Shown here piece after piece: positions 6,359 to 41,301 of a stretch of DNA of 64,000 nucleotides. Made by a program: the position numbers and the translations under genes. A model generated the notes under the pieces. That model searched no databases. It was not told where the DNA came from and saw only the letters and a list, made by a program, of their open reading frames with translations. The number at the start of each line of letters is the position of its first letter. The stretch's first letter is position 1. This stretch comes from an uncultured Candidatus Saccharibacteria bacterium (GTDB lineage Bacteria; Patescibacteriota; Minisyncoccia; Phycocordibacterales; Phycocordibacteraceae), in NCBI GenBank assembly GCA_964593365.1, contig CAZQGQ010000001.1, forward strand, positions 50,153 through 114,152, written 5' to 3'.

Positions 6359-6431
6359 GCTCCTGTGGTGAAACGGATATCATTACTGTCTTCGGAACAG
6401 TCGTTCCAGGTTCGAGTCCTGGCGGGAGCAC
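6359..6431 (+). tRNA. tRNA-Arg (anticodon TCG)
   Basis: Manual cloverleaf fold. Acceptor GCTCCTG/CGGGAGC, D-arm with GG, anticodon stem ACTGT/ACAGT with loop CTTCGGA, T-arm CCAGG-TTCGAGT-CCTGG, discriminator A. No full CCA encoded. Confidence 0.8.
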
Positions 6432-6476
6432 AAGCGAATTGAAGAAACGAAAAGAGTGTGCGACCATAGAGTTCGC

Positions 6477-6550
6477 GCGGATATGGTTTAGTGGTAAAAC
6501 GGGTCCTTGCCAAGGACCAGTCGGGAGTTCGATTCTCCCTATCCGCACCA
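6477..6550 (+). tRNA. tRNA-Gly (anticodon GCC), 3' CCA encoded
   Basis: Acceptor GCGGATA/TATCCGC, anticodon stem GGTCC/GGACC with loop TTGCCAA, T-loop GTTCGATTC. Ends ACCA. Confidence 0.85.
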
Positions 6551-6556
6551 GTCAGG

Positions 6557-6584
6557 AAAGCGGCCCCATAAGGGCCGTTTTTCC
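6557..6584 (+). terminator. Rho-independent terminator after tRNA-Gly
   Basis: AAAGCGGCCC-cataa-GGGCCGTTTTTCC hairpin followed by a T-run. Confidence 0.6.
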
Positions 6585-6741
6585 GTTCATTAGGACCTGT
6601 GTATAAAGGTGTTGGCAGTGGGGATAAAAGACAAAAGTCACTCTCGGTCAATTTCCGTTAGTCCGAGAAATACCCATATAACAGGCCGTACTCTTCAAGG
6701 TCGGAGCACTCATTTGTTTTTCACGAAAAGACACTCTCAAT

Positions 6742-6815
6742 TGGTCGGGCCGCCGAGAATCGAACTCGGTCTCTCTGCTCCCAAAGCAGATGTACTACCG
6801 GTATACTACGGCCCG
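6742..6815 (-). tRNA. tRNA-Pro (anticodon TGG)
   Basis: Reverse complement CGGGCCG-TA-GTAT...TCTGC-TTTGGGA-GCAGA...CCGAG-TTCGATT-CTCGG-CGGCCCG-A-CCA. Full cloverleaf; CCA present. Confidence 0.8.
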
Positions 6816-6845: not shown

Positions 6846-8054
6846 TTATTCCGCCTCTGCAATCGCTTCTTCGAGGATATCGAGAAGATCTGATGCGCGG
6901 CCGCGGAAGTTCGCGACGAGTGTTGGTGTGTTTCCCTTGAGATAGGCATCAAGGTCGCTGTTCATGTCAGCGCGGAAGCTGCGGCGCACATGATCCATGG
7001 TGAGTGCCTGCAGTTCGCGAAGGGAAAGATCCGGTTTCACGCTTCGGGTCGAGATAAGTCCGATAAGGCGTCGGTTCTCGTTTATGACAGCGCCTCCGGA
7101 GGATCCTTCCTGGGCTGCAGGGCCCGCCTTGACCGAGAAGATATCGGTGCGGTTCCCGCCGAAGGTATATACGTCGTTTACGGGGGCGAAGCTTATTGTC
7201 GGATAGAGGGATGAGCGTACCTGGGAGCTCGTCAGGAACTCAGCGGCATAGGAGCCAATGCCTACCTGGTCTCCTATCTCTATATCTGTCGCCGAGGAGG
7301 CAAGCGGGATATGGATGAAAGAAGAGGGAACAGAAGACCCTGTCAGGCTTCCGGTGACCGCCACGAAAGCAAAGTCATCCTGGCCGGTGCCGGTGGGACG
7401 AGTCGAAAGGAAAGTACCGGGGTTGTCCTTTATCCAGTCAGAGGAGATGTAGATAAGTTCGGCAGTGTAGGCATTTTTGGCTGGGCTTCCGGTCCGGATA
7501 TAGCAGTGGCCGGCATTCTCTTGCGGGTAGTCGGTCAGAAGGAAGCCTTGCGCGACGTGTGCGACGGTCATGATGATTCCTTTTGAGTCCACCACCACTC
7601 CAGAGCCCGAGCTTCCGCGAAGGCCTCCTCCTTGGACGCAGATGATATTTACGACCGCACCCTTAAGAAGAGCTTCAGTCGTGAGCTTTACATCAACGTT
7701 GGGGACAACCGGCGCTACGGGCGCTGTTGGCGTTACCGGCGCGACTATTTGCGGGGGAGTAGGAACCGGGAGCGGGGTGAAGGGAACCGTCGGGGTTGTC
7801 GTTGGAACCGGCTTAGGTGTTTGGGGAACTGCGGGAGTGACCGTTGCAGTTGAGCTTGCAGCTTCGGCAAGCTCATCGATCAGTATTTCAAACGGGGAGG
7901 GTCCTGGGTCTATCGCTGGAACCACTTCCGCCACTTCTACCGGCGGAATCTCGATCTCAGGAGGAGGTCCTGAGAACTGGTGGTACTGGGTAACCACGGT
8001 CGCCCAGAAGGTAAGGGCGCCCGCGGCTACGATTGAGACGATGTGCTGGAGCAT
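6846..8054 (-). CDS. Membrane-anchored trypsin-like serine protease with a Pro/Thr-rich linker
   Basis: 402 aa. N-terminal TM helix, a long PTPV-rich linker, catalytic-type motifs TVAHVA and AQEGSSGGAV (GxSGG). Confidence 0.7.
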   Translation of the reverse strand: MLQHIVSIVAAGALTFWATVVTQYHQFSGPPPEIEIPPVEVAEVVPAIDPGPSPFEILIDELAEAASSTATVTPAVPQTPKPVPTTTPTVPFTPLPVPTPPQIVAPVTPTAPVAPVVPNVDVKLTTEALLKGAVVNIICVQGGGLRGSSGSGVVVDSKGIIMTVAHVAQGFLLTDYPQENAGHCYIRTGSPAKNAYTAELIYISSDWIKDNPGTFLSTRPTGTGQDDFAFVAVTGSLTGSSVPSSFIHIPLASSATDIEIGDQVGIGSYAAEFLTSSQVRSSLYPTISFAPVNDVYTFGGNRTDIFSVKAGPAAQEGSSGGAVINENRRLIGLISTRSVKPDLSLRELQALTMDHVRRSFRADMNSDLDAYLKGNTPTLVANFRGRASDLLDILEEAIAEAE

Positions 8055-8113: not shown

Positions 8114-8184
8114 GCGGGATTAGTTTAATGGTAGAACATCAGTTTTCCAAACTGAGAGCAGGAGTTCGATTCTCCTATCCCGCA
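8114..8184 (+). tRNA. tRNA-Gly (anticodon TCC)
   Basis: Acceptor GCGGGAT/ATCCCGC, anticodon stem TCAGT/ACTGA with loop TTTCCAA, T-arm AGGAG-TTCGATT-CTCCT, discriminator A. CCA not fully encoded (ACCC). Confidence 0.8.
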
Positions 8185-12248: not shown

Positions 12249-13664
12249 ATGCGTACTAACACTTTATACAGAAACGTAGCTGCCTTTGTAACGGCAGCCG
12301 CGCTTTCGCTCTCAGTATTTGCGATGATGCCGGCACTTCCGGCACGCGCCGCTGACTGCGGATTCACTCGCGACATGCAGGTAGGAACCTCAGGAGATGA
12401 TGTGAAGTGCCTTCAGATCTATCTGAACTCTACTGGTTTCTTGGTCGCAAGCACGGGAGTAGGATCTCCAGGACAGGAGACGACCCTCTTCGGAGGACTT
12501 ACCAAAGACGCAGTCATGCGTTGGCAGTCTGCAAACCAGGTAACGCCTGCAAGCGGCTACTTCGGAATGCTCTCGCGCGCAAAGTATGCGTCGATTGCTT
12601 CTGGCGGAACCACGCCTCCTCCGTCAACTCCATCAACAGATGAGACCCGGGCACGCATCGCTCTTCTTGAAGCGGTGTCTGCATACCAGGACGCAGTTGA
12701 TGAGGATGACAACGCAAGCGAGGATGTCGGCGACACCCTCTTGGATGCATTCGTAGCATTCCTTGACCGCGACTACTCAGAAGCGATCAGCCTTGCACAG
12801 GATGCTGAATCTGACGCGAAGGACATCACTGACAACTCAGATGATGACGACAACGATGATGACGACAACAATGGCGATGAACAGGATGCTGAAGACGCCA
12901 TCGAAGACGCTGAGAACGCCATCGAAGACGCTCAGGAGGACATCGACGACTCTACCCAGTCAAACGGCGACATCAGTGACGCTGAGGAGCTCCTCGAGGA
13001 TGCGGAAGCAGCCCTTGATGACGCTAACGAAGCCCTTGATGACGAAGAGTTTGATGAGGCAATCGAGCAGGCCGAAGAAGCACAGGACCTTGCTGAAGAG
13101 GCAAGCGACATTGCAAACGGCAACGAGGACGATGATGACGACAGCTCTGACGAGGAAGACGCCCAGGATGCAATCGACAATGCTGACGAAGCTATTGACG
13201 ATGCGCAGCAGGCGATCGACGACTCAGATGAATCTATCGGCACCAAGGAAGAAGCTCAGGACCTTGTTGACGAAGCAGAAGACAAGCTCGACGTCGCTCA
13301 GGAAGAGTTTGACGACGAGAAGTACGATTCCGCAATGGACCGCGCTGACGAAGCTCTCGAGCTCGCAGAAGAAGCGCAGGATATTGCAGAAGGAGGAAGT
13401 GGCAGTAACGATGACGCCGACGAGGGCGACGCAGAAGACGCTCTCGACGATGCTGAGAACGCCATCGATGATGCATGGGAAGCAGTCGACGACTCTGATG
13501 CGTCAAACGACGACATCGAGGAAGCCGAGGACCTTCTCGAGGAAGCAGAAGATGTTCTCGCCGAGGCAGAAGATGCCTACGACGACGAGAACTATGATGA
13601 CGCAGTTGAGCTAGCCGAGGAAGCTGAAGACCTTGCCGACGAGGCAATGAACTTGGTCGACTAA
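12249..13664 (+). CDS. Secreted peptidoglycan-binding-domain protein with a long poly-acidic (Asp/Glu) repeat region
   Basis: Signal peptide MRTNTLYRNVAAFVTAAALSLSVFAMMPALPARA. PG_binding_1-like segment DMQVGTSGDDVKCLQIYLNSTGF...TLFGGLTKDAVMRWQ. Then about 300 aa that are over 40% D/E, with roughly three ~70 aa repeats (EEFDDE.YD.A...AEEAQDLAEEA.DIA.G..DDDD). Confidence 0.7.
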   Translation: MRTNTLYRNVAAFVTAAALSLSVFAMMPALPARAADCGFTRDMQVGTSGDDVKCLQIYLNSTGFLVASTGVGSPGQETTLFGGLTKDAVMRWQSANQVTPASGYFGMLSRAKYASIASGGTTPPPSTPSTDETRARIALLEAVSAYQDAVDEDDNASEDVGDTLLDAFVAFLDRDYSEAISLAQDAESDAKDITDNSDDDDNDDDDNNGDEQDAEDAIEDAENAIEDAQEDIDDSTQSNGDISDAEELLEDAEAALDDANEALDDEEFDEAIEQAEEAQDLAEEASDIANGNEDDDDDSSDEEDAQDAIDNADEAIDDAQQAIDDSDESIGTKEEAQDLVDEAEDKLDVAQEEFDDEKYDSAMDRADEALELAEEAQDIAEGGSGSNDDADEGDAEDALDDAENAIDDAWEAVDDSDASNDDIEEAEDLLEEAEDVLAEAEDAYDDENYDDAVELAEEAEDLADEAMNLVD

Positions 13665-13685
13665 GCAGACCGCTCATACGTGCAA

Positions 13686-13718
13686 AGAAAGCCGCCCTTC
13701 ACGGGGCGGCTTTCTTCA
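13686..13718 (+). terminator. Rho-independent terminator
   Basis: GAAAGCCGCCC-ttcac-GGGGCGGCTTTCTTC. Confidence 0.6.
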
Positions 13719-13752
13719 TGCAGAGAACTTTCTCAAAAGGTACTATGGAGGG

Positions 13753-14943: not shown

Positions 14944-16059
14944 TTAGTTTTTAATTGTGATTGGAAGGCCGTCGATCACTTGTTTCAGAACGTATGGCTT
15001 CGTGAATGCCCGCTTGCCGTCTGAGGTGAGTGTGCCGGAAGCGCCGGTATAGACCTCTATCTTTGCAAGATAGTCCTTAACGACTTCGGGATCTTCGGAA
15101 CCGGTCTCTTCCATTGCTTCTGCGATCATCATGATTGCGTCGTAGGCTGAGTCAGCACCAATCTCAACATCGCGGTTGTACGCTGCTTGGTACTTTGCTT
15201 CAAAGTCAGACGTGGGCGTGAGAGAGGTTGGGAAGATCATTCCGTTACAGCTGTCACCGCATTGCGTAATGATGCCCTTGTCGACGGTAATGTTGAAGAG
15301 TGGGAGCGTTGATCCGAACTCCTTAAGCTGGCGAGCAGTCACAACCGTAAGGCCAGTCCCGTCGGTCGTCATAACAACCGCGTCGACTGACTTGTCGATA
15401 AGCACCTTCTGGATCTCTGTACGTTCGTCAGAGGTTCCGAGAATTGGCTCGTAGATATGTGCGACCGTTCCTCCAAGCTGTTCGAAGCGCTTCTTGAACG
15501 CAGCTGTCTGGAGCGTCACCCATACGTCATTTGCTCCAAAGAGCGCAACCTTTCGATGTCCTCGCTCATACACGATGTCTGCGAGGTCAGCAGAAAGGAT
15601 CTCGTCATGCTGCCAGGTGTTGAAGAGGTACTCGCTGCTTTCGTTGAACGCAGGAGCGCCAAGAGAAGGAGAGATCACGACCACCTTAGCGGCCGCAGCA
15701 ACGGGAGCGACAGCAAGGCCGGTATTCGACCAGTTAAGGCCGACGATGAACTTGGCCCCGTCAGCAGTAGTGAGCTTCTTGAAGGCACTGATGGACTTCT
15801 GAGAGTCCCCCGCATCGTCCTCATAGATGCCGCGGAGCTGCTTTCCGTTAACTCCTCCGCGCGCGTTCACTTCTTTAATGGCAAGCTCCATGCCGTTTCG
15901 AGACGCTTCGCCCCAGGTGGCTCCTTCGCCTGAAAGGATCATGATGCCGCCAATGGGGATAGAGCCTTCATTAGAGGTGTTGCCTTTCGTTACTCCTACT
16001 CCAACAAGCACGATGAGCACCAGGAGAACAATGGCACCAAGGATAAATTTCTTGTTCAT
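14944..16059 (-). CDS. ABC transporter substrate-binding protein, PBP type 1 (LivJ/branched-chain amino acid family), membrane-anchored. Cassette 1 SBP.
   Basis: 371 aa. N-terminal TM anchor, then IPIGGIMILSGEGATWGE...GGVNGKQL...DD, the Peripla_BP_6 signature. Confidence 0.8.
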   Translation of the reverse strand: MNKKFILGAIVLLVLIVLVGVGVTKGNTSNEGSIPIGGIMILSGEGATWGEASRNGMELAIKEVNARGGVNGKQLRGIYEDDAGDSQKSISAFKKLTTADGAKFIVGLNWSNTGLAVAPVAAAAKVVVISPSLGAPAFNESSEYLFNTWQHDEILSADLADIVYERGHRKVALFGANDVWVTLQTAAFKKRFEQLGGTVAHIYEPILGTSDERTEIQKVLIDKSVDAVVMTTDGTGLTVVTARQLKEFGSTLPLFNITVDKGIITQCGDSCNGMIFPTSLTPTSDFEAKYQAAYNRDVEIGADSAYDAIMMIAEAMEETGSEDPEVVKDYLAKIEVYTGASGTLTSDGKRAFTKPYVLKQVIDGLPITIKN

Positions 16060-31294: not shown

Positions 31295-32113
31295 CTATGG
31301 ATAGGTTAGTTTTCCCTCTCCTTTGTTTTCCGGAAGTGTACTGTCGATATAACGGAAGAGAGCCTTAATTGTCTCTGCGATTTTCTTGTCAGTTACAATC
31401 ATCGCCCACGGATGGTCTTCAGCGAACGAAATAATAAGAGCTTTATCGTCGTAAGCTGCGAGCTCGATATCAAAATCGAATTCTTTTGGCAAGAATTTAG
31501 TTACACGCAATTGCTGGTCATCAAATTTAGTCATCTCGCGTGACTTAGGACTATCAACTGCAAGTGCGAGCCATTTTATCCCTGCGGCAGGGCGTTTCTT
31601 TAAAATGTAATCAATCCAGTCCATCCCCATGAGGTTGTAGATTGCGTGGATACCAGTGAAACCATAAACAACTTTTTCTTTGTTGTCGTGTACCAGATCT
31701 TCGTACGCTTGTTTGATACCCTCAGCACCGTCAAAGAATTCAAAGTGAGGTCGATAACGTTCTTCTGTATTCCGGAGACGAGCAATCTCAGGTACTACTT
31801 CTGAGACGCGCTTGATGTTTCGGAGAAGTCGTTCTTGCGCACGTTCAAGATAGTCAACCAAAAGGTGTGGTTGTATAGATTGAAAAAGGAGCACTCCGCG
31901 TTCTTCGGAAGAAGTCACGAGACCTTTCTCAATAAGTGACTTTAAGATTCCGTAAAGCGTTGTGCGGTTGAAGTGAGTACGTTTTGCGATGTCGGTTGCA
32001 CGGAGGCCGGAACTTTGTCTTAAAAGAAACACAAAAACTTTAATCTCAGTATCGGAAAGCCCGCTATCCTTCAGGGTCTCAACAAGTGTCTGATCAATTT
32101 TCTCTCGAGTCAT
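31295..32113 (-). CDS. TrmB/MarR-like wHTH transcriptional regulator. Cassette 2 regulator.
   Basis: N-terminus LKDSGLSDTEIKVFVFLLRQSSGLRATDIAKRTHFNRTTLYGILKSLIEKGLV. C-terminal domain with the FFDGAEGIKQAYEDLV motif shared with paralogs. Confidence 0.7.
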   Translation of the reverse strand: MTREKIDQTLVETLKDSGLSDTEIKVFVFLLRQSSGLRATDIAKRTHFNRTTLYGILKSLIEKGLVTSSEERGVLLFQSIQPHLLVDYLERAQERLLRNIKRVSEVVPEIARLRNTEERYRPHFEFFDGAEGIKQAYEDLVHDNKEKVVYGFTGIHAIYNLMGMDWIDYILKKRPAAGIKWLALAVDSPKSREMTKFDDQQLRVTKFLPKEFDFDIELAAYDDKALIISFAEDHPWAMIVTDKKIAETIKALFRYIDSTLPENKGEGKLTYP

Positions 32114-32120
32114 AATAACT

Positions 32121-32143
32121 GTTGTCGGAATTTATCAACAATA
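32121..32143. promoter_or_regulatory. Putative operator half-sites (TTGTCGGAA ... ATCAACAA), with a second TTTTGTCGGATAAT at 32207-32220
   Basis: Repeated TTGTCGGA in the divergent intergenic region. TATAAT at about 32201-32206 lies just upstream of the SBP start. Confidence 0.35.
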
Positions 32144-32220
32144 ATACCCTTCTGCTTGACAAAGAACAAGTAGGGAACATACTTTCGTCCAAGTGCGCAT
32201 TTATAATTTTGTCGGATAAT

Positions 32221-33348
32221 ATGAACAAAAATTGGCTGATCTCGGCAGTTGTACTTGTTGTTGTGATTATCGGCGGTTGGCTTCTGTTAAAAGAAGGTAA
32301 CCAGGGCACATCAGAAACGGGCCCAATTAAGATTGGTGTTTCGGTTCCGCTTACGGGCGAAGCGGCGAGTTATGGAGAGGCTGGACGTGCTGGTCTGATG
32401 TTGGCTTTAAAAGAAATAAATGATGCTGGCGGTATTGATGGGCGTTCCGTTGAACTAATTATTGAAGACGATAAATGTAGTTCTGCGAGCGTTAGTGCAT
32501 ATCAGAAACTTATCAACGTAGACAAGGTGGTCGCCATTATTGGGCCAGTGTGTTCTCCGGCTGCAGGACCAGCTAACCCTATCGCACGTGAGGCAGGGGT
32601 TCCAAGTATTATGATTGGCGCTTCGGCTCCGGGTCTTGCTGGAGGGGACGACTCTGTTTTCAGCGGATATGCGTCAGACGCTCTTCAGGGACAGTTCGTT
32701 GCAGAGTACGTATACAACACTCTCGAGAAAAGAAACGTTGCTGTCATGTATGAAAACAACGACTGGGGCAAGGGCATCCAGGAAGTCTTCACTAAGCGCT
32801 TCAAGGAACTCGGTGGCACCATCGTGTTTATCGAAGGGGCAGCTCAAGGTTCAAAGGACGTTAAGTCTATTCTCGCGAAAGTTAAAGCAGCCAATCCAGA
32901 CATGATCTACATGCCTGCGTTCCCTGCACTTGCTACGATCGCTATGAAGCAGATGAAAGAGCTTGAAATTACCGCCCCTGTGATCGGTGGTGATGCCTTT
33001 GAATCTGAAGAATTCTTGACTTCGGGTTTTGCTGACGGTGTCATGTATATCACTGGCGCCGTGGGTAACCCGGATGACTTCCAGGCAAAGGTTAAGGCGG
33101 TATCAGGAGACGACGCGATTATAAACATCGTCACCCCTCTTGGTTACGATGCGCTTAAAATACTCGCGAAGGTTATCGACGAGCGCGGAAGTACAAAGCC
33201 AGAAAGCATAATTGCAGGCCTAAAAGCACTCAGCTACACGGAAGGAATTTCATTTCCAATGATTAGCTTTGATGCTAATGGCGATCTTAGGGAAGCAGCA
33301 TACGATGTGAAAATCGTTCGTGGGACTGAATCCGAAATCGTTAAATAA
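32221..33348 (+). CDS. PBP1/LivJ-family ABC substrate-binding protein, membrane-anchored. Cassette 2 SBP.
   Basis: I prefer the ATG at 32221 (MNKNWLISAVVLVVVIIGGWLLL...IKIGVSVPLTGEAASYGEAG...GGIDGRSVELIIEDDKC). The track ORF starts at 32122. Confidence 0.8.
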   Translation: MNKNWLISAVVLVVVIIGGWLLLKEGNQGTSETGPIKIGVSVPLTGEAASYGEAGRAGLMLALKEINDAGGIDGRSVELIIEDDKCSSASVSAYQKLINVDKVVAIIGPVCSPAAGPANPIAREAGVPSIMIGASAPGLAGGDDSVFSGYASDALQGQFVAEYVYNTLEKRNVAVMYENNDWGKGIQEVFTKRFKELGGTIVFIEGAAQGSKDVKSILAKVKAANPDMIYMPAFPALATIAMKQMKELEITAPVIGGDAFESEEFLTSGFADGVMYITGAVGNPDDFQAKVKAVSGDDAIINIVTPLGYDALKILAKVIDERGSTKPESIIAGLKALSYTEGISFPMISFDANGDLREAAYDVKIVRGTESEIVK

Positions 33349-33361
33349 AAGGAGAAATAGC

Positions 33362-33397
33362 AAAACCGGCCGCTACTGTGCGGCCGGTTTTGCTTTG
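33362..33397. terminator. Bidirectional terminator between SBP2 and regulator 3
   Basis: AAAACCGGCCGC-actgt-GCGGCCGGTTTTGCTTTG. Confidence 0.65.
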
Positions 33398-34206
33398 TAG
33401 TTTTCGGTCCCAAGTTCTTGGGCTCCCTTCCATGCAAGATCAAAGATGATTCGCATCATACGATGCAAGGACTTGTCTTCGATGATAAACCCCGAAGGGT
33501 GGCGAGGATTAAGATTTGTAATAAGCATCTTGCTGTCGCCATAGATAATAATCTCTCCCTCAAGCGGAAAATCTTTTGGCGGGAGATAACGTACTTTAGG
33601 TTTAAAACGTGAAGGAACATCCGAATGCACATCTTCAACAACTACCCGCGATTCTTCCGTTGCGGGAAGTATCCCACGAACCGTTATTCCTATCTCAACC
33701 TTACGTTTGCGAAATTTCCGATAGTATTTCTCATCAAGAAATTCGAGAATGTTTGCTGAGTTAGCGATACTAAGTAATTCGTAAGGCTTATCACCTGCGA
33801 CTAAATCGTCGTAAACCGATAGTACCCCCTCTGCTCCTTCAAAATATAGCAACCGCGGTTTATTAGTGTGGTCGGCAAAGTATCCTTGGAGTTCAGGTAA
33901 CAGACTCTGTACTTGCTCCACCGCATCATTTGCGTTTGCCGCATTTCGCTCTGCAAGACGGAGAAGTTTTTTAGGGTTATCAATCTGATAATAAATCTTC
34001 TTTCCGCGTTCAATCTCGTTTACGAGCCCTTTTACACTTAGGTCTGTAAGGATCTTGTAGACCGTACTTCGATTAACACGTGTCTCAGTAGCTATATCAG
34101 AGGGATATGCCCCTCCCATCTCTAGAAGGTAGGAATAAATTATTGACGCTTTCTGTGAAAGCCCGGTTTCCTGGAGGTTGGCTACAATCCGTTTAGCAAG
34201 TTCCAT
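33373..34206 (-). CDS. TrmB/MarR-like wHTH regulator. Cassette 3 regulator.
   Basis: LQETGLSQKASIIYSYLLEMGGAYPSDIATETRVNRSTVYKILTDLSVKGLV; YFEGAEGVLSVYDDLV. Confidence 0.7.
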   Translation of the reverse strand: MELAKRIVANLQETGLSQKASIIYSYLLEMGGAYPSDIATETRVNRSTVYKILTDLSVKGLVNEIERGKKIYYQIDNPKKLLRLAERNAANANDAVEQVQSLLPELQGYFADHTNKPRLLYFEGAEGVLSVYDDLVAGDKPYELLSIANSANILEFLDEKYYRKFRKRKVEIGITVRGILPATEESRVVVEDVHSDVPSRFKPKVRYLPPKDFPLEGEIIIYGDSKMLITNLNPRHPSGFIIEDKSLHRMMRIIFDLAWKGAQELGTENYKAKPAAQ

Positions 34207-34324
34207 AACGTTTAGAGAAGTGTATCATTATTTGTCACTTCATACGAACAAAATTAATATCAAGCTTAAAAGAGAGCCTACATTAAGCATATTTGTGTTA
34301 TTTGAAGGTAGCAAACGCGTACAC

Positions 34325-34347
34325 CATTTGACACATATGTGTAAATG
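34325..34347. promoter_or_regulatory. Imperfect palindrome CATTTGACACATATGTGTAAATG immediately upstream of the SBP3 start codon (putative operator)
   Basis: Symmetric about CATATG and 8 nt upstream of the ATG at 34356. A second TTTGTCAC...GAACAAA element lies at 34229-34254. Confidence 0.4.
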
Positions 34348-34355
34348 TCCGGTAT

Positions 34356-35456
34356 ATGAAAACAAACACACTGCTTGTTATAGGGGTCTTGATTGTCGTG
34401 GTTGTGGGCGGCTGGTTCGTTCTTAACGAAAAGGATGGATCAGAACAATCTGAAACCGTTAAAATCGGCCTTATTCTTCCTCTAACCGGGGATCTTGCTC
34501 ACTTCGGAGAGGCGGGACAACGGGCTGCCTCTCTCGCTATTGAGGAAATCAATGCAAACACAGGATTCAGCTATAACTATGAACTTGTAATCGAAGATGA
34601 CTCATTCGATGCAAGAAAAACAGCAAGTGCACTCAATAAGCTAATCAGTGTTGATAGAGTAGATGCGGTTGTCAGTGTTGGTTCCGGCCCAGGCAACGTG
34701 GTAGCCCCCATTGTTGAGAAGAATAAAATCCCCCATATTGGTCTTGCGTCTGATCCTGTTGTTTCGGATGGGGAATACAACTTCATCCATTGGACTCGAC
34801 CTCAAGAAGAAGTAGACACCATGCTTACTGAACTTAAGGAGCGTGGTCTAACCCAGGTTGCAGTTATGGGTGTCAATCACCAAGGCTTTCAAGCGATAAC
34901 AGATGACTTCAAGGCAAAGGCGTCTAAAGCTGGAATTACGATAGTAAGCGATCAACTCTTTAACACGGGTGAGACTGACTTTAAAACAGTCATCGTAAAC
35001 TCACAGCGCACCAACCCAGACGTCTATCTTCTTGGAGCGTTTAGTCCTGAAGTCGAAATCCTCGCAAAGCAAATGAAAGAGCTTGGCATAACCAAACCAC
35101 TAACCTCAATTGAATCGTTTGGACTTAGTGCAACACCAGAAGTGTTTGAAGGGCACTGGTTTATTGATTCCGCCGTTGTCACTGGGGGATTCAGCGATAA
35201 GTATCGTGCAAAATACAATGCCGCCGTCGGTCCTACTGCTGCCAACATCTATGACGCGCTTAATCTAATAGTGCTCGCTACGGAGGAAGCAGGTAAAGAT
35301 AATCGCCCAACCGGGACTGACATTGCTGTTGCTCTTGGAAAAGTAAAAGGATATTCAGGCGCATTTGGTCCTCTTTCTGTTAGTCCAGAGGGACAGTTCA
35401 TCTCACAGCCTTCAGTAAAGATAATTAGCAACGGGAAACCGACGGAGGTTGAGTAA
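34356..35456 (+). CDS. PBP1/LivJ-family substrate-binding protein, membrane-anchored. Cassette 3 SBP.
   Basis: MKTNTLLVIGVLIVVVVGGWFVL...VKIGLILPLTGDLAHFGEAG. Confidence 0.8.
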   Translation: MKTNTLLVIGVLIVVVVGGWFVLNEKDGSEQSETVKIGLILPLTGDLAHFGEAGQRAASLAIEEINANTGFSYNYELVIEDDSFDARKTASALNKLISVDRVDAVVSVGSGPGNVVAPIVEKNKIPHIGLASDPVVSDGEYNFIHWTRPQEEVDTMLTELKERGLTQVAVMGVNHQGFQAITDDFKAKASKAGITIVSDQLFNTGETDFKTVIVNSQRTNPDVYLLGAFSPEVEILAKQMKELGITKPLTSIESFGLSATPEVFEGHWFIDSAVVTGGFSDKYRAKYNAAVGPTAANIYDALNLIVLATEEAGKDNRPTGTDIAVALGKVKGYSGAFGPLSVSPEGQFISQPSVKIISNGKPTEVE

Positions 35457-35468
35457 AAGTGAATTCCG

Positions 35469-35503
35469 AAACCGCCCGCATATGCGGGCGGTTTTCTTAT
35501 TTA
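35469..35503. terminator. Bidirectional terminator
   Basis: AAACCGCCCGC-atat-GCGGGCGGTTTTCTTATTT. Confidence 0.65.
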
Positions 35504-36255
35504 GAGACACTCTTTTTTTCCGAAGGAAGTGTTTCCCAAATCACCTTGAACCATGTTCGGAAACTGTCAGCGATGTTTTGGTTCACAATGACCGTATAGG
35601 TTGCAGATTCATCTATTACGCCCGGTTCGATATTGGAGAAGATAATAATGCGGTCTTTGAGAATCTCAACGGCAGAGTTAGTTGATCGAGAAGATGGGAA
35701 GAACTTATTGTCAGACATATCGAGTACGGAGGGAACTGCGGCTCTGGCCTCGTGGTCGAAGATGGCGTAGAAAGTTATGTTCTTCCGTCGAACTTCTTTT
35801 ACAAATTGATCATAGAAGGACGCAATTCGTTTATCTCCCCATGCGCCCTTGGCTCCAAGGGTGTGGACGTCTTCACCTGCGCGCAAAATCTCGCGCATGT
35901 AATTCTTCCAACCTTCAAGTCCGCGATACACATATGTCGCATCTGTTTTGTTTATCACACGGTACTTTGCCTCAAGGTCAGGCATGATCTTCTCAAGAGC
36001 AGTCTCCTTCTCTTTGATGAGCTCCATCAGTTTCTTGGGATCAACCGCCTGGTAACGGTTCTCACCCGTCTGAAGTATTTCAAAAACCACACCCTTCTCT
36101 ATAAGGCGATTCAGAGAGTCATAAACGTTTCTGCGGTTTACCCCTGAATGGACCGCAATCTTACTTACCGACATCTCTCCTTCAGAGAGAAGGGATTCGT
36201 AGATTCGTGCCTCGTTTTTGGAGAAGTTGAGCTGGGTGAGAACGTCAGTAAACAT
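35497..36255 (-). CDS. TrmB/MarR-like wHTH regulator. Cassette 4 regulator.
   Basis: I prefer the ATG at 36255 (MFTDVLTQLNFSKNEARIYESLLSEGEMSVSKIAVHSGVNRRNVYDSLNRLIEKGVV). It aligns with the paralog at 45272. YVYRGLEGWKNYMREIL motif. Confidence 0.7.
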   Translation of the reverse strand: MFTDVLTQLNFSKNEARIYESLLSEGEMSVSKIAVHSGVNRRNVYDSLNRLIEKGVVFEILQTGENRYQAVDPKKLMELIKEKETALEKIMPDLEAKYRVINKTDATYVYRGLEGWKNYMREILRAGEDVHTLGAKGAWGDKRIASFYDQFVKEVRRKNITFYAIFDHEARAAVPSVLDMSDNKFFPSSRSTNSAVEILKDRIIIFSNIEPGVIDESATYTVIVNQNIADSFRTWFKVIWETLPSEKKSVSK

Positions 36256-36356
36256 TGAGGTGTAGATTATCACCATATGGCCATATATGCCACTCATGAG
36301 TAATAACTTACGCTTCCCCGGCATTGGCAGTTACTAAACCCCTGCCAGTAAAACGT

Positions 36357-37436
36357 ATGAAAACAAAGGTTATTTTCGGTTTGCTGGCGATTGTGGCAGT
36401 CGCCCTGCTTATCGGCACGTCAGACAAGGAAGCTGATTCTGAGTCAGAAATCAAGATTGGAGTGGTAACTCCTCTCACCGGAGGGGCTGCCTATTGGGGA
36501 GAATCTTCTCTCGTTGGAATCAGGCTCGCAGAGCAGGAACTCCAAGAGAAAGGGATTCCGGTCCGGGTGATTGTTGAAGATGGGGAGCTTGATCCGAAGC
36601 TTGCCCTAAGCGGTGCACAGAAGCTCGTGAATATAGATGGCATTGATGCCATGTATACCGAGTTCAATCCGGCCGTCATCGCAGTAAGCTCGTTCCTTCA
36701 AGATAAAGATCTTATCCAGATCTGCAACGCGACTCCGGTTTCCCCACTTGCTCTAAGCGAAAACTTCTTCAAAACGTACTTAGATTACGAAGAAAGCTGC
36801 GAGCAAGTGGCGAACGTCCTGCAAGGTCGTGGCCACACGAAAGTTGGGGTTCTGAAAATGAACCTCGAACACGGAGACCTGTGCTTGAAAGGAATACGAA
36901 ACGTGTTTGGCGATAACGTTGTGGTCGAAAACTACAACACTGGAATAGTTGACTTCCGGACCCCTCTTGCAAAGCTTGAAGCCTCCGGAGTCCAGGTCAT
37001 CTTCCACGCTGCGTTTCAGGCCGAGACGTTGGCATCGCTACGAAATATGCGCGAGCTTGGGATGTCGCAGCCGTTCGTCGGCCTTGCTGAGACCATGACT
37101 CCTGGTGTCGCTGAGGAGTTCGAAGACGTGCTAGAGGGGGCTGTAGTCTTTGGGCTTCCGACAGTGTCTCCTGACCTACTTGCAAGACTGAATACGGTTG
37201 CGGTCGATGAGAAGCTTGTAGACCAAAATGCGGCTGCTCTCGCGTATCTTCATATCACGCAACTTGGCGAGGCTCTTAGCGAGTGTAAAAAAGAGACAGC
37301 CTGTGTACGAGAGAAGTTGAAACAGTCCCCCGCGAATGCAGGCGTAGGATTCCAGGGTTTTACGGATCGCATTGCCGGGTTCGATACGCTCATCCAGGAA
37401 TGGAAAGATGGGCAATTTGTCCCCGTTTCTGAATAG
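36357..37436 (+). CDS. PBP1/LivJ-family substrate-binding protein. Cassette 4 SBP.
   Basis: I prefer the ATG at 36357 (MKTKVIFGLLAIVAVALLIG...IKIGVVTPLTGGAAYWGE). Confidence 0.8.
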   Translation: MKTKVIFGLLAIVAVALLIGTSDKEADSESEIKIGVVTPLTGGAAYWGESSLVGIRLAEQELQEKGIPVRVIVEDGELDPKLALSGAQKLVNIDGIDAMYTEFNPAVIAVSSFLQDKDLIQICNATPVSPLALSENFFKTYLDYEESCEQVANVLQGRGHTKVGVLKMNLEHGDLCLKGIRNVFGDNVVVENYNTGIVDFRTPLAKLEASGVQVIFHAAFQAETLASLRNMRELGMSQPFVGLAETMTPGVAEEFEDVLEGAVVFGLPTVSPDLLARLNTVAVDEKLVDQNAAALAYLHITQLGEALSECKKETACVREKLKQSPANAGVGFQGFTDRIAGFDTLIQEWKDGQFVPVSE

Positions 37437-37452
37437 GTCGCTACCAACGTTT

Positions 37453-37484
37453 ACCGCCCGTCTATACGGGCGGTTTTCGTTTAT
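37453..37484 (+). terminator. Rho-independent terminator between SBP4 and livH
   Basis: ACCGCCCGT-ctata-CGGGCGGTTTTCGTTTAT. Confidence 0.6.
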
Positions 37485-37496
37485 ACTAGGGAAAAC

Positions 37497-38372
37497 ATGG
37501 ACATCGTCCCGCAGCTTATCGTCAACAGCCTCATCGCAGGCTCTCTCTACGCGCTTGTCGCGATGAGCTTCAATCTCATCTTCGGCGCGACCAAGTTCTT
37601 CAATCTCTCGCACGGCGTCTTGGCCGCTGTAGGCGGATATACCGCCTTCTTCCTTGGAACGACGCTTGGAGCTCCGGTTTCAGTTGCGGTAGCTGGGGCA
37701 GTGATTGCTGCTGCGGCAATCGGATATGGATTCGAGTTCTTTATCTTCCGCCCGCTTCGAAAACGAAAGGCATCAAACCTCGTTCTCCTCGTTGCTTCCT
37801 TAGGAGCCTTTACCGCAGTTGAGGCCATTATTGCCATTCTCTTCACGAGCCAATTCCGAACGCTTTCCTCGCTTACCGGAACGCCAGGCGTCGTCCACCT
37901 TGGAACAGGCGTGATGACGTATGTGCAGGTAGTCATCCTTGCTTCAGCCGTAGCAATCCTAATTCTTCTCTGGCTCGTGCTCACGCGTACTTCCTTTGGA
38001 AAGGCGGTACGAGCCGTCTCTGATGATGAAGAGGTCGCAAAGATTGTTGGAATTAATACGAACAAGATCATCGGCATCGTTTTTATCGTAGGATCTGCGA
38101 TCGCAGGACTTGCTGGCGTATTCGCTGGCATGGATACGGGCATCGAGCCTCGCATGGGCTTCGTACTTCTATTGAAGGGAGTTATCGCTGCAATTGTTGG
38201 CGGCATTGGAAGCGTGTATGGCGGATTCCTGGGAGCCTTCCTTCTTGGCTTTGCCGAGAACTTCGGTATTTGGTACATCAGCGGAGAGTGGAAGGACGCG
38301 ATCGCTTTTGCGATTCTGATCATCTTCTTGCTTGTACGCCCGCAAGGAATCTTGGGTAAGAAGAAAACATAA
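37497..38372 (+). CDS. livH: Branched-chain amino acid ABC transporter permease (LivH-type)
   Basis: 291 aa, 8 TM. BPD_transp_2 pattern. Ends ...LVRPQGILGKKKT. Confidence 0.85.
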   Translation: MDIVPQLIVNSLIAGSLYALVAMSFNLIFGATKFFNLSHGVLAAVGGYTAFFLGTTLGAPVSVAVAGAVIAAAAIGYGFEFFIFRPLRKRKASNLVLLVASLGAFTAVEAIIAILFTSQFRTLSSLTGTPGVVHLGTGVMTYVQVVILASAVAILILLWLVLTRTSFGKAVRAVSDDEEVAKIVGINTNKIIGIVFIVGSAIAGLAGVFAGMDTGIEPRMGFVLLLKGVIAAIVGGIGSVYGGFLGAFLLGFAENFGIWYISGEWKDAIAFAILIIFLLVRPQGILGKKKT

Positions 38373-38375
38373 TTT

Positions 38376-39242
38376 ATGGAATATCTTATTCACCTGGCGA
38401 TCCTGTTCTCGATCTTCGCAATATTGGCTGTATCTCTCCAGCTTCTTGTCGGATACACCGGCCTTCTCTCCGTTGCCCATGCCGCTTTCTACGGTATCGG
38501 GGCATACGTAGTTGCGCTCACTCTTTCCAATACCGGGTTTGGATTTTTCCCAGCGCTTCTCATGGGAATACTCATAAGCGCGGCAGCGGCCTTCTTGATT
38601 GGTCTGGTGCTCTCGAAGTTCCGTGATGATTACTACGCGCTTGGCTCCCTAGGCTTCAACGTCATCGTATTCTCGATATTCCTTAACTGGCAGGAGGTAA
38701 CACGGGGTCCGCTAGGTATCCCGGGAATCGATCGGCCACAGCTCTTTGGTTTTGTTTTTTCAGAGAACATCGCCTTCCTTATTCTTGCTCTCGTATTTCT
38801 CCTCATTATTTATGGGATCGGGAAATTCATAACGGAGTCTTCTTTCGGGCGCGCGCTCCAGGCGATACGCGAGGACGAACAGGCGCTTTCAGTATTCGGG
38901 TACCGCACCTCATGGTTCAAGCTTGCGATCTTTGTCGTGAGCGCCGCGATGGCGTCAGTTGCAGGCGGACTCTTCGCTTCCTATATAACGTTCATTGATC
39001 CAAGCTCGTTCACGATCGTTGAGTCGATCTTCATGCTCTCCCTTATTATCCTTGGCGGACTCGGTACGCTTCGTGGAGCTATCCTTGGCGCTCTCGTGCT
39101 CATCCTCCTTCCGGAAGCGCTTCGCTTCGTTGGCTTTACGCCAGACATCGCAGCCCAGATGCGCCAAGTGATCTACGGCCTCATGCTCGTCCTTCTTATG
39201 CTGTATCGGCCGCAGGGACTGGTTGGTAAGTACAAGCTTTAG
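38376..39242 (+). CDS. livM: Branched-chain amino acid ABC transporter permease (LivM-type)
   Basis: 288 aa. GLLSVAHAAFYGIGAY...LGGLGTLRGAILGALVL. Confidence 0.85.
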   Translation: MEYLIHLAILFSIFAILAVSLQLLVGYTGLLSVAHAAFYGIGAYVVALTLSNTGFGFFPALLMGILISAAAAFLIGLVLSKFRDDYYALGSLGFNVIVFSIFLNWQEVTRGPLGIPGIDRPQLFGFVFSENIAFLILALVFLLIIYGIGKFITESSFGRALQAIREDEQALSVFGYRTSWFKLAIFVVSAAMASVAGGLFASYITFIDPSSFTIVESIFMLSLIILGGLGTLRGAILGALVLILLPEALRFVGFTPDIAAQMRQVIYGLMLVLLMLYRPQGLVGKYKL

Positions 39243-40105
39243 TTTGTCACTAGTGTTTTGATCTCTTTTCGTATAGCCTCAGCGCGCTTAACATTGCGAG
39301 TTATCGTAAGTGTTGTTTTGCCTGTTTGATTCACAATGCTTTGCATTTCTCTGGCATTAAACTCAGTAAGGTTCTTTACCCCCTCGAACATTGCCTTTAT
39401 ATCTTGGAAAATAAAGTTAGGCACTTTAGTTTCGAAGACAAAGTCTCCAATAACGGTTACGTGGAAGTTATCGCTCGGAGCGCCGTAACCTGAAAGCTTG
39501 CTGTAGAGTTTGAAGTGAAAATTGGAGGCGTTATGAAGCTGGGGTACCAGGCGATTGAGAAGGGTGTGTGAGCCGCTCGCCATATACCAGTCGATATTCA
39601 TGGGCTCAAACCCATGCGCAAGCTCAACTGAACCGTCAGAGCGAAGCACTTGAATCCAAGAATAGTAATTCTTGCTATATGCATTCTTGTCCTTGTGGTC
39701 GTTGTCTCGATAATAGTATGAGATTGTCAGGAGTGCGTGGTCCCAGAACGTATCCATCTCTGTCACACGATCAAATACATAGGCTTTGGTTTCGCCCTCC
39801 TCAAGAATGATAGTTGCCTTGGTGATTTCGTTTGAAAGATGCGTTTGCTTTACTCGATCCGTGAATTTTATGAGGTTCTGTACCCAGGCACTGTAAAGAG
39901 AAAGCGTGCCGTTGTTTTTAACTATCACGCGGTCTGCAAGAAGCTGGCGCAGGATCTTATAGAACCCTTGAAGAGTCATGCCAGAAGGGTATTTGCTGAG
40001 AAAGAACTCAAAAGCCTCCTTGCTTGTTATGCCCGGTTTACGGGACAAAATATCAAGCACTATCCCTTCAGGGGAGGGTTTTTGTTCGTAGGGGTTAGGA
40101 ATCAT
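39239..40105 (-). CDS. Divergent putative regulator occupying the regulator slot of cassette 5 (weak wHTH-like N-terminus, no clear TrmB motif)
   Basis: 288 aa. LDILSRKPGITSKEAFEFFLSKYPSGMTLQGFYKILRQLLADRVIV could be a winged helix. The C-terminal domain is unlike the other seven regulators. Confidence 0.4.
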   Translation of the reverse strand: MIPNPYEQKPSPEGIVLDILSRKPGITSKEAFEFFLSKYPSGMTLQGFYKILRQLLADRVIVKNNGTLSLYSAWVQNLIKFTDRVKQTHLSNEITKATIILEEGETKAYVFDRVTEMDTFWDHALLTISYYYRDNDHKDKNAYSKNYYSWIQVLRSDGSVELAHGFEPMNIDWYMASGSHTLLNRLVPQLHNASNFHFKLYSKLSGYGAPSDNFHVTVIGDFVFETKVPNFIFQDIKAMFEGVKNLTEFNAREMQSIVNQTGKTTLTITRNVKRAEAIRKEIKTLVTN

Positions 40106-40206
40106 AGGGAGTAAACGTTTCGTTTAGAATAGTATAATAGTTGATTAACTGTTTACTTTTGTCAACTACATCGTAGAGTGCTGCCGTACCAAATAACGGC
40201 ACACAT

Positions 40207-41301
40207 ATGCAAAACGTACGACAGTTAGTAACTCTGGTTGCGGCAGTTCTGGTTGTTCTTGGTGGTGCGTATGTGCTTTCCCAAGGCTCTTCAAGCTCTA
40301 GTGATACCGTGAAGATTGGGTTCATTGGTCCACTTACCGGATCGATGGCGAGCATTGGTGAATCAAGTCTTGCGGGCGCCATGCTCGCCGTAAAGGAGAT
40401 AAATGATAAAGGAGGTCTTCTTGGGAAAGAGGTTGAGCTTATCGTTGAAGACGACAAATGCTCTGCTGACGGAGCAACGGCGATTAGTAAACTTATTAAC
40501 GTAGATAAAGTAGTCGCTATCTCCGGCCCTGATTGTGGAGCCTCAGGCTCTGCGGCGCTTCCTATAGCAGAAGAAAAGCAAACTCCGGTTGTCATTCGTT
40601 GGGCATCCGCTCCTCCTCTTGCGAAGATAGGAGAGTATATTTTCCGTATCTATCCTTCAGATGCGTTTCAGGGGAGGTTTGTCGCTGATTACATCTTCAA
40701 CGAGCGAAAGGAACGGAAAGTAGCTGTTCTCTACGTCAAAAACGTATGGGGTCAGGGCATTACCGAAGTGTTTGTCGAACGGTTTAAAGAGCTTGGGGGC
40801 GAAGTAGTGTTTGAGGAAGGGGTGCTTGAAGACACTCGGGATCTTAAGACTCAGTTGAACTTGATACAGAATTCAGGCGCAGACATTCTCTTTGCGCCGC
40901 TCTACGCACCAAACGGGGTTATCGCACTTCGACAGATGAAGGAGCTTGGGTTCAAGATCCCCGTTGTCGGAGGAGACGTATTTGAAAGTGCTGAAGTTCA
41001 GGAGGCTCCTGGCGCAACTGGCGTTCTATTCTCAGCTGCGATCATCACAAACCCAGGAGACTTCCAAGCGCGTGTAGCGAAAGAGGTAGGGCGCGACGGG
41101 AGTCGAGTGACTGCGCCACTGGGGTACGACTCGGTCATGGTTATCGCTCAGGCAATTGAGCGCGCTGGCTCTCTGGATCGAGAAGGGATTCGAGATGCCC
41201 TTCAAGAAACGTCATACGCAGGAGTTGCGTTCCCCATGATTGAATTCGATCAAGACGGAGACCTGCTTGAGGCACGGTACGAAATTAAAAAGATCCACTA
41301 A
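40207..41301 (+). CDS. PBP1/LivJ-family substrate-binding protein. Cassette 5 SBP.
   Basis: MQNVRQLVTLVAAVLVVLGGAYVL...VKIGFIGPLTGSMASIGESS...GGLLGKEVELIVEDDKC. Confidence 0.8.
   Translation: MQNVRQLVTLVAAVLVVLGGAYVLSQGSSSSSDTVKIGFIGPLTGSMASIGESSLAGAMLAVKEINDKGGLLGKEVELIVEDDKCSADGATAISKLINVDKVVAISGPDCGASGSAALPIAEEKQTPVVIRWASAPPLAKIGEYIFRIYPSDAFQGRFVADYIFNERKERKVAVLYVKNVWGQGITEVFVERFKELGGEVVFEEGVLEDTRDLKTQLNLIQNSGADILFAPLYAPNGVIALRQMKELGFKIPVVGGDVFESAEVQEAPGATGVLFSAAIITNPGDFQARVAKEVGRDGSRVTAPLGYDSVMVIAQAIERAGSLDREGIRDALQETSYAGVAFPMIEFDQDGDLLEARYEIKKIH

Follow-up and report, generated by a model that had tools for sequence, protein, structure and literature searches.

Introduction

Wall teichoic acids, poly-gamma-glutamate and the Ser-Asp stalks of the Clf/Sdr proteins are anionic and length-variable, bind divalent cations and set the charge of the cell surface; these wall polyanions of Gram-positive bacteria are covalently anchored (by LCP enzymes, CapD or sortase) and are either non-protein or disordered. 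Here, we describe a gene located at positions 12249..13664 (forward strand) of a 64,000-nucleotide (nt) stretch of contig CAZQGQ010000001.1 from an uncultured Candidatus Saccharibacteria bacterium (this whole stretch is hereafter called the window, and positions are counted from its first letter). The sequence supports a secreted product, predicted to dock to peptidoglycan and endowed with an exceptionally anionic repeat region. With the teichoic-acid-like class the window protein shares wall attachment (predicted from its PG_binding_1 domain) and a high fixed charge (−141 over 341 residues), a resemblance in properties only; unlike the Gram-positive wall polyanions it is ribosomally made, apparently folded and predicted to dock non-covalently, the proposed analogy being a functional one.

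The closest documented architectural analogue is the Arp protein (TP0433) of Treponema pallidum, which is exported and combines a variable number of acidic repeats with a peptidoglycan-binding domain. The Arp repeats, reportedly about 20 amino acids (aa) long, have low-confidence models (disordered or beta), as opposed to the 90-aa helical bundles of the window protein, and Arp is anchored by a C-terminal SPOR domain instead of an N-terminal PG_binding_1 domain; no sequence relationship was detected between the two proteins. The authors of the Arp study expect it to have a positively charged partner (bioRxiv 10.1101/2022.08.02.502389). Tandem three-helix bundles arranged as beads on a string on a wall anchor also occur in protein A, Ebh and the NR-alpha region of Fap1 (3rgu), which differ from the window protein in having mixed-charge surfaces, defined ligand sites and anchors of the LPXTG or another type; none of them showed sequence similarity to it.

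The docking domain of the window protein is the non-covalent PG_binding_1 module known from wall enzymes, such as the Zn D-Ala-D-Ala carboxypeptidase of Streptomyces (1lbu), CtpB (4c2c) and endolysins (e.g., 7rum). In these enzymes it is joined to a catalytic domain, which the window protein lacks, and it is devoid of the extra N-terminal Cys pair and the ‘GxGxPGxET’ insert found in the window family. The repeat unit of the tail has the size of DUF4398 (PF14346), a three-helix bundle represented by the structure 4fm3 (PA2901 of Pseudomonas aeruginosa). DUF4398 proteins are, we assume, short single-domain proteobacterial lipoproteins, whereas the window protein carries the unit in tandem, in a hyperacidic form and behind a PG_binding_1 domain. 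Finally, the nearest relatives of all are the ‘peptidoglycan-binding proteins’ of Patescibacteria (e.g., the homologue on JAIETW010000001.1, GCA_019744845.1), which have been named only automatically. They possess an identical architecture, with 31–53% identity over the full length, and have in common with the window protein the invariant Cys pair, the CLQxYLN motif, the acidic 79-residue unit and the C-terminal ending; they differ from it by usually having one bundle fewer.

Results and Discussion

The acidic tail is predicted to be a string of folded three-helix bundles

The tail of the window protein (residues 131–471, i.e., 341 aa) contains 89 Asp and 60 Glu (together 43.7%) for only eight Lys and Arg (2.3%), which agrees with an earlier note, made from the sequence letters, that had described more than 40 percent D/E and almost no basic residues. 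Its net charge is −141, and there is no His in the whole protein. The acidity of the tail is far above chance expectation, the other 55 long open reading frames (ORFs) of the window having a mean D/E content of 11.7% (standard deviation 4.0, maximum 19%). As the rest of the window proteome is not acidic, halophilic adaptation was ruled out as the cause.

An in-frame DNA repeat of 220 nt is present in three copies (starting at 12885, 13158 and 13428), which share 64–72% DNA identity and correspond to protein units that are 53–59% identical; a fourth copy, degenerate and less acidic, lies at residues 130–197. The earlier note had counted roughly three degenerate repeats of about 70 aa. The repeats are there, with the fourth copy to be added, but their spacing of 273 and 270 nt gives a period of 91/90 aa.

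To describe the unit, we tabulated 204 units from 76 family members, with 79 profile positions each. In this table, A/V/I/L/M/F/W/Y account for at least 60% of the residues at 28 of the 79 positions, which rarely bear a charge; at 21 of these hydrophobic positions D, E, K and R are altogether absent. The core has an Ala every seven residues, with Leu or Ile at the adjoining core positions; an aromatic residue occupies the ‘DDEDY/WDEA’ turn, and the loop lengths are conserved. The 51 surface positions contain on average 40% D, 28% E and 9% K/R, and the preference for Asp or Glu differs from one position to another. Such a pattern points to a folded domain whose surface appears to have been selected to be anionic, not to a low-complexity sequence. 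Hence, the low-complexity poly-Asp/Glu tail of the earlier note gives way to a strict heptad core, in what are predicted to be folded three-helix bundles.

The AlphaFold2 model of the window protein, built on the alignment of 76 sequences (mean predicted local distance difference test score, pLDDT, 88), comprises a small anchor domain followed by four three-helix bundles, one degenerate and three canonical (pLDDT 88–98). The bundles are separated by low-confidence hinges of 9–11 residues, made of poly-Asp/Asn/Ser/Gly, and the predicted template modelling score of the whole chain is low (pTM 0.34), as would suit a string of independent beads. When modelled alone, a single unit (bundle 3) reached a pLDDT of 98.1 and a pTM of 0.87. 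Each bundle carries a charge of about −35, nearly every exposed position being Asp or Glu. The features of the gene and of its product are as follows.

12249..13664, + strand: complete gene of the predicted secreted, peptidoglycan-binding, hyperacidic repeat protein (471 aa; stop codon 13662–13664)
12249..12350, + strand: signal peptide, residues 1–34 (MRTNTLYRN, hydrophobic core, then ARA followed by AD; no lipobox)
12351..12602, + strand: family-specific PG_binding_1 domain, residues 35–118 (Pfam PF01471)
12603..12635, + strand: Gly/Thr/Pro/Ser linker, residues 119–129 (low pLDDT at residues 121–124)
12636..12839, + strand: predicted bundle 0, residues 130–197, degenerate, shorter and less acidic (helices 130–152, 158–172 and 176–197)
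12840..12866, + strand: hinge 1, residues 198–206, DDDDNDDDD (pLDDT below 50 at residues 200–206)
12867..13115, + strand: predicted bundle 1, residues 207–289, canonical acidic (helices 207–236, 243–264 and 268–289)
13116..13142, + strand: hinge 2, residues 290–298, NGNEDDDDD (pLDDT below 50 at residues 294–296)
13143..13388, + strand: predicted bundle 2, residues 299–380, canonical acidic (helices 299–325, 330–355 and 359–380)
13389..13421, + strand: hinge 3, residues 381–391, EGGSGSNDDAD (mean pLDDT 58 over residues 381–390)
13422..13661, + strand: predicted bundle 3, residues 392–471, canonical acidic (helices 392–415, 420–445 and 449–470)
12763..13614 (+ strand) and 12932..13246, 13234..13677 and 13298..13516 (− strand): overlapping stop-free ORFs, without homologue support

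The hidden Markov model (HMM) of the unit recognises bundles 1, 2 and 3 with E-values of 1e-22, 5e-21 and 8e-25, the corresponding copies of the DNA repeat spanning 12885–13104, 13158–13377 and 13428–13647, and gives only a weak match with bundle 0 (independent E-value 0.85). A 15-nt micro-repeat was found in the region of hinge 1 (12840–12873) by Tandem Repeats Finder. The protein ends with bundle 3 and has no membrane anchor.

As a matter of general physical chemistry, a tail charged to −141 and nearly devoid of basic residues would be strongly disfavoured from folding at low ionic strength; an idealised composition is suggested by its best sequence matches in the PDB, which are designed helical repeats. 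An intrinsically disordered polyanionic tail, for which the helical models would be over-predicted, must thus be weighed, and we regard it as very unlikely in view of the following lines of evidence. First, the 28 core positions are conserved as hydrophobic, with the seven-residue period of Ala. Second, the loop lengths and the aromatic turn are conserved across the 204 units. Third, one unit matches the crystallised DUF4398 bundle with a template modelling (TM) score of 0.72 and 30% identity, and is modelled alone with very high confidence. The folded, bead-like tail is therefore the reading that we retain from the models. A Foldseek search of the PDB with the whole model returned designed repeat proteins only, with non-significant E-values, and sequence searches of the PDB with the tail returned designed helical or TPR proteins only, a result that bears on the hairpin motif and says nothing of function.

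The gene, its export signal and its peptidoglycan-binding domain

The ORF at 12249..13664 (471 aa), to which the earlier note had drawn attention, is present, and the alignments of its product show it to be a genuine gene read in the correct frame. Several hundred homologues follow the D/E-rich frame collinearly, from Met1 through the PG_binding_1 domain to the C-terminal ‘...DEALDEI’. For this reason, the overlapping ORFs are by-products of GAN-rich codons; those that run across the acidic repeat are variously rich in Thr/Lys/Met, Ser or Arg. The ORFs that the earlier note had named as spurious, 12763..13614 (+) and the minus-strand ones, were all found, and its reservation that the Thr/Lys-rich ORF might be the real frame is removed by the collinear homologues, which fix the frame. 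It had also considered an assembly artefact. The repeats, being only 64–72% identical in DNA, would be hard to mis-assemble, and the same layout of one degenerate and three canonical units occurs in a homologue from an independent genome (L006; 467 aa, 52% identity), the four-bundle form of which argues against an artefact. A profile scan with the unit and the N-terminal domain found a single copy of the gene within the window.

The signal peptide proposed by the earlier note is borne out by inspection of residues 1–34, which comprise a basic n-region with three Arg, a hydrophobic h-region (modelled as a helix over residues 5–24) and an AXA site of the signal-peptidase-I type (A32-R33-A34, followed by A35), as expected of a Sec-exported protein. 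Two other modes of anchoring were rejected. The residues preceding C37 are A-A-D, and an Asp at position −1 is incompatible with the lipobox of a lipoprotein; the C-terminus (...LADEAMNLVD) is without the LPXTG motif, hydrophobic stretch or basic tail of a sortase-anchored protein.

The PG_binding_1-like domain of the earlier note passes the Pfam threshold, since the PF01471 match at residues 48–106 scores 33.1 bits where the gathering score is 23. The HMM of the family-specific N-terminal domain matches residues 37–117 with an E-value of 3e-39, and the Cys pair C37 and C54 and the CLQxYLN motif are invariant in the 76-sequence alignment. In the model, the domain adopts the small three-helix fold of PG_binding_1 (helices 50–61, 83–95 and 107–117), with a pLDDT of 93–97 across residues 41–110, and it has a weak profile alignment to the peptidoglycan-binding domains of 1lbu and CtpB.

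The repeat unit resembles DUF4398, not HEPN

On structural grounds, the unit of the tail appears to be DUF4398-like. The Foldseek comparison of one unit with 4fm3, already mentioned, gave a root-mean-square deviation of 3.1 Å over an alignment of 74 columns and a probability of 0.99, with an E-value of 0.7 that is non-significant for so small a domain; 4fm3 is nevertheless the closest natural protein match with detectable sequence similarity. The DUF4398 profile matches three stretches of the window protein at 24.8 bits, below its gathering score of 27.9, whereas relatives of the window protein exceed this threshold (41.7 bits for P0121, 45.3 bits for P0127, and many precomputed matches). Helices 2–3 of the unit also match the consensus TPR hairpin ‘...GDYDEAIE...’.

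The Pfam match to HEPN (PF05168), which like a partial DUF4398 match is located in bundle 2, is above threshold (35.4 bits against 22), and some homologues bear the corresponding name. However, the match is restricted to profile positions 1–38 of 117; the Rx4-6H catalytic motif is impossible in a protein without histidine; and HEPN RNases are cytoplasmic, whereas the window protein is exported. We explain the match by the generic helical hairpin common to the TPR consensus, and a HEPN nuclease was ruled out. Considering this identity together with the long alternative ORFs, one of which would be the true gene, and with a repeat number created by mis-assembly, we give next to no credence to an artefact of any of these kinds, in the light of the collinear homologues, the divergent repeats and the four-bundle L006 protein.

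Three homologues (P0022, P0037 and P0103) have been automatically named ‘HEPN domain-containing protein’ (by JGI) or ‘DNA repair exonuclease SbcCD ATPase subunit’. Both the HEPN and the SbcC names are apparently erroneous, a generic helical hairpin or a sequence resembling a coiled coil having misled the annotation, and the present analysis corrects them.

A large family of Patescibacteria

A word-indexed search retrieved 244 proteins with E-values of 1e-3 or less, all of 290–550 aa and nearly all with PF01471, with or without PF14346. Those that are named are ‘peptidoglycan-binding proteins’ of Patescibacteria, Paceibacterota or Parcubacteria. The peptide pattern DV[RKL]CLQxYLN yielded at least 262 confirmed loci among the GTDB species representatives. 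The 80 loci that were listed belong to metagenome-assembled genomes of Patescibacteria wherever the record names a lineage, namely Kaiser-, Nomura-, Wolfe- and Vogelbacteria, Minisyncoccia and numerous binned assemblies labelled ‘Saccharibacteria’. A search of 1.84 billion proteins with a profile of the unit only returned 1,323 cluster representatives (clusters at 50% identity) with E-values of 1e-3 or less, 367 of them at 1e-10 or less, most of the same size and layout. Among all homologues with a named source organism the family is confined to Patescibacteria, and the origin in the candidate phyla radiation (CPR) supposed by the earlier note agrees with the fact that all named homologues and syntenic loci are from Patescibacteria/Paceibacteria. 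We found no description of the family in the literature on DUF4398, on teichoic acids of Patescibacteria and on acidic peptidoglycan-binding proteins. Databases thus already contain this large family, to which the window protein adds a new member of unusual length and unusual acidity.

The acidity of the tail is conserved in the family. The tails of 76 homologues contain on average 38% D/E and 6% K/R (37% D/E in 77 species-representative proteins), with a net charge of about −90 (range −31 to −141), so that the window protein is the most acidic of those compared. The number of bundles ranges from two to four, most members being proteins of about 400 aa with three bundles, as compared to four in the window protein.

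Some paralogues are enlarged. P0121 (977 aa) bears a GDSL/SGNH esterase domain and a beta-rich region on the same anchor and bundles, and P0147 (594 aa) a Cys-rich C-terminal domain without Pfam match. Teichoic acids are known to recruit and restrain autolysins, and the anionic bundles might similarly recruit or restrain cationic wall proteins, such as autolysins or esterases, or else serve as a rigid spacer. The two fusions, the co-occurrence of both variants in one genome, and the M14 peptidases encoded downstream of one distant homologue are consistent with such a scaffolding or regulatory role. We nonetheless consider it unlikely, as an enzyme domain is absent from the window protein and from most other members, and no wall enzyme is consistently adjacent to the gene at the 80 loci. 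The genome that possesses both types of enlarged paralogues (L057 and L058) is that of a Patescibacteria bacterium, where they are found on contig JAKLEX010000001.1.

Relatives of the unit that are not acidic were also noticed. Two of them, P0123 and P0129, are long, repetitive and rich in N-x-T/S motifs, and P0123 ends in a membrane anchor. In the Lys/Glu-rich P0230, which likewise has a membrane anchor at its C-terminus, a Cys follows the hydrophobic stretch of the N-terminus. From these relatives, the DUF4398-like unit looks like a general extracytoplasmic building block, of which the version in Patescibacteria would be the hyperacidic form.

A possible wall-anchored anionic stalk

By analogy with teichoic acids, we tentatively propose, as the best of the readings considered although we hold it with less than even confidence, that the protein is a wall-anchored anionic stalk or brush which fixes negative charge and counter-cations in the envelope. 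The protein would be exported by the Sec pathway and its signal peptide removed, after which the PG_binding_1 domain would dock non-covalently to the peptidoglycan of the cell itself. The four rigid bundles would then project from this anchor as a jointed rod, beads on a string with flexible hinges; taking about 3.6 nm for a helix of about 24 residues, we estimate that the four bundles would span about 14 nm, plus the hinges. In so doing, the bundles may give the envelope a fixed negative charge and govern the electrostatics of the cell surface. At about −35 per bundle and with hardly any basic residue, such a charge must draw in and condense positive counter-ions, so that the protein would buffer Mg2+/Ca2+ and serve as a cation reservoir fixed to the wall. 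The bundles probably also need counter-ions to fold, in which case the protein would stay unfolded until exported. In function, this ribosomally made protein would thereby be the counterpart of wall teichoic acid or of the Ser-Asp stalks of staphylococcal surface proteins.

Several observations speak for this proposal. First, charge seems to be the selected property, in that the surface of the unit is made of Asp and Glu in the proportions given above and the acidity is conserved across the family. Second, the varying number of bundles and the esterase or Cys-rich domain carried by some paralogues fit a stalk. Third, the gene appears monocistronic and is placed among housekeeping genes (MgsA, HU, RNase Y and ClpP), with no conserved partner at 80 loci, and the family is widespread in Paceibacteria, as befits a structural or constitutive role.

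Other observations weigh against the anionic stalk. AlphaFold tends to favour idealised helical repeats, and all the top PDB sequence matches are designed proteins. Some lineages tolerate a K/R content of 13–14%, their net charge being as low as −31 to −45, so that an extreme charge is not universally required. Concerning metal binding, the Pfam search gave no EF-hand match at an E-value of 1 or less, and no other curated metal-binding family matched; the SMBP match (11.6 bits) is far below its threshold of 29; and, upon inspection, neither the loop ‘DDDGxDxDD’ between helices 1 and 2 nor the loop ‘DDSxxSxxD’ fits the canonical 12-residue EF-hand register. As to whether Paceibacteria lack teichoic acids, the only statement that we found in the literature (PMC11809585) deals with another class and proposes rhamnose polysaccharides. 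Lastly, the PG_binding_1 domain could bind the wall of a host instead of the cell's own.

This last possibility leads to an adhesin or host-interaction function, in which the bundles would be specific binding modules, like those of the Gram-positive wall-anchored proteins (protein A, Ebh, Fap1 NR-alpha), recognising a basic ligand of the host, or in which PG_binding_1 would grip the host wall and the bundles would remain on the symbiont. The Fap1 NR-alpha bundle (3rgu) is among the natural fold matches (TM 0.68), a variable repeat number is typical of adhesins, and Paceibacteria are episymbionts or parasites. In addition, a study of three cultured Paceibacteria (PMC10936435) put forward, as attachment factors, highly expressed secreted proteins with a peptidoglycan-binding domain and similar predicted structures, which would favour adhesion here too if they belonged to the present family. 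We see adhesion as possible yet doubtful: what is conserved on the surface of the unit is its composition (D and E being interchangeable), with no conserved patch of distinct residues, and members of the family are surrounded by housekeeping genes, away from any pilus, secretion or variable island. Moreover, archaea have no murein for a PG_binding_1 domain to grip. The hosts studied in PMC10936435 are archaea; besides, the one of its proteins that we traced, PMX_810_sub_00350 (2079 nt, 693 aa), has no PG_binding_1 annotation and does not resemble the present family.

Returning to the anionic stalk, the evidence agrees with, and partly supports, the earlier picture of a polyanion tethered to the wall of a CPR bacterium. 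The divalent-cation sequestration, teichoic-acid mimicry and host adhesion that the earlier note attached to it are plausible proposals. A bolder version, namely that docked hyperacidic bundles are the principal wall polyanion of Paceibacteria, replacing teichoic acids in cation homeostasis, surface charge and the control of wall enzymes, and folding upon contact with counter-ions after export, is in our opinion improbable. Patescibacteria are ultra-small, host-dependent organisms that represent a large share of bacterial diversity and whose envelopes are little known. Because it would place an extreme and ordered negative charge on the wall, the family, which is widespread, conserved, single-gene and probably constitutive, is a concrete and easily expressed candidate for the management of cations, surface charge or host contact in these bacteria. 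It thus offers a tractable entry to their envelope biology, even though nothing in it is mechanistically unexpected and its function is inferred only.

Genomic context and other features of the window

Upstream of the gene, a bPH_2 membrane protein and a small membrane protein are encoded on the opposite strand; downstream are the genes of the MgsA/RarA ATPase and then of a LivK-like binding protein. A GC-rich (guanine plus cytosine) hairpin, noticed by eye 23 nt past the stop codon, separates the gene of the acidic protein from mgsA and suggests a monocistronic transcript.

13687..13719, + strand: terminator-like hairpin (11-bp stem GAAAGCCGCCC / GGGCGGCTTTC, 6-nt loop, then TTCAT)

An automatic terminator scan did not call this hairpin, which lacks the T-run that the scan demands.

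The nearest relatives of the gene share a housekeeping neighbourhood (CCA-adding enzyme, trypsin-like protease, MgsA, HU, RNase Y and ClpP), with synteny extending to MgsA, HU and RNase Y; this neighbourhood is not kept around a distant relative. Clustering of the neighbours of the 80 loci revealed no conserved partner gene, the commonest neighbours being MgsA (13 of the 80 loci), HU (8) and the protease (7).

The LivK-like protein encoded beyond the mgsA gene (14944–16059, − strand) is a substrate-binding protein of the Peripla_BP_6 family. Four paralogous Peripla_BP_6/LivK-like binding proteins (32122–33348, 34356–35456, 36324–37436 and 40207–41301) are encoded in a block of lower GC content (31295–41301; 43–48%, as compared to 52–57% elsewhere in the window), which brings the number of Peripla_BP_6 paralogues within the 64 kb to at least five. 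There, they alternate with three TrmB-family regulators (31295–32113, 33373–34206 and 35497–36324, all on the minus strand), and two LivH/M-type permeases are found at 37497–39242. The block, which contains regulators and transporters instead of any wall-polymer gene, looks like an expanded array of the regulators and binding proteins of an ABC importer. Finally, four tRNA genes, three of them clustered at 6359–6815 and one located at 8114–8184, flank the gene of a trypsin-like protease (6846–8054).

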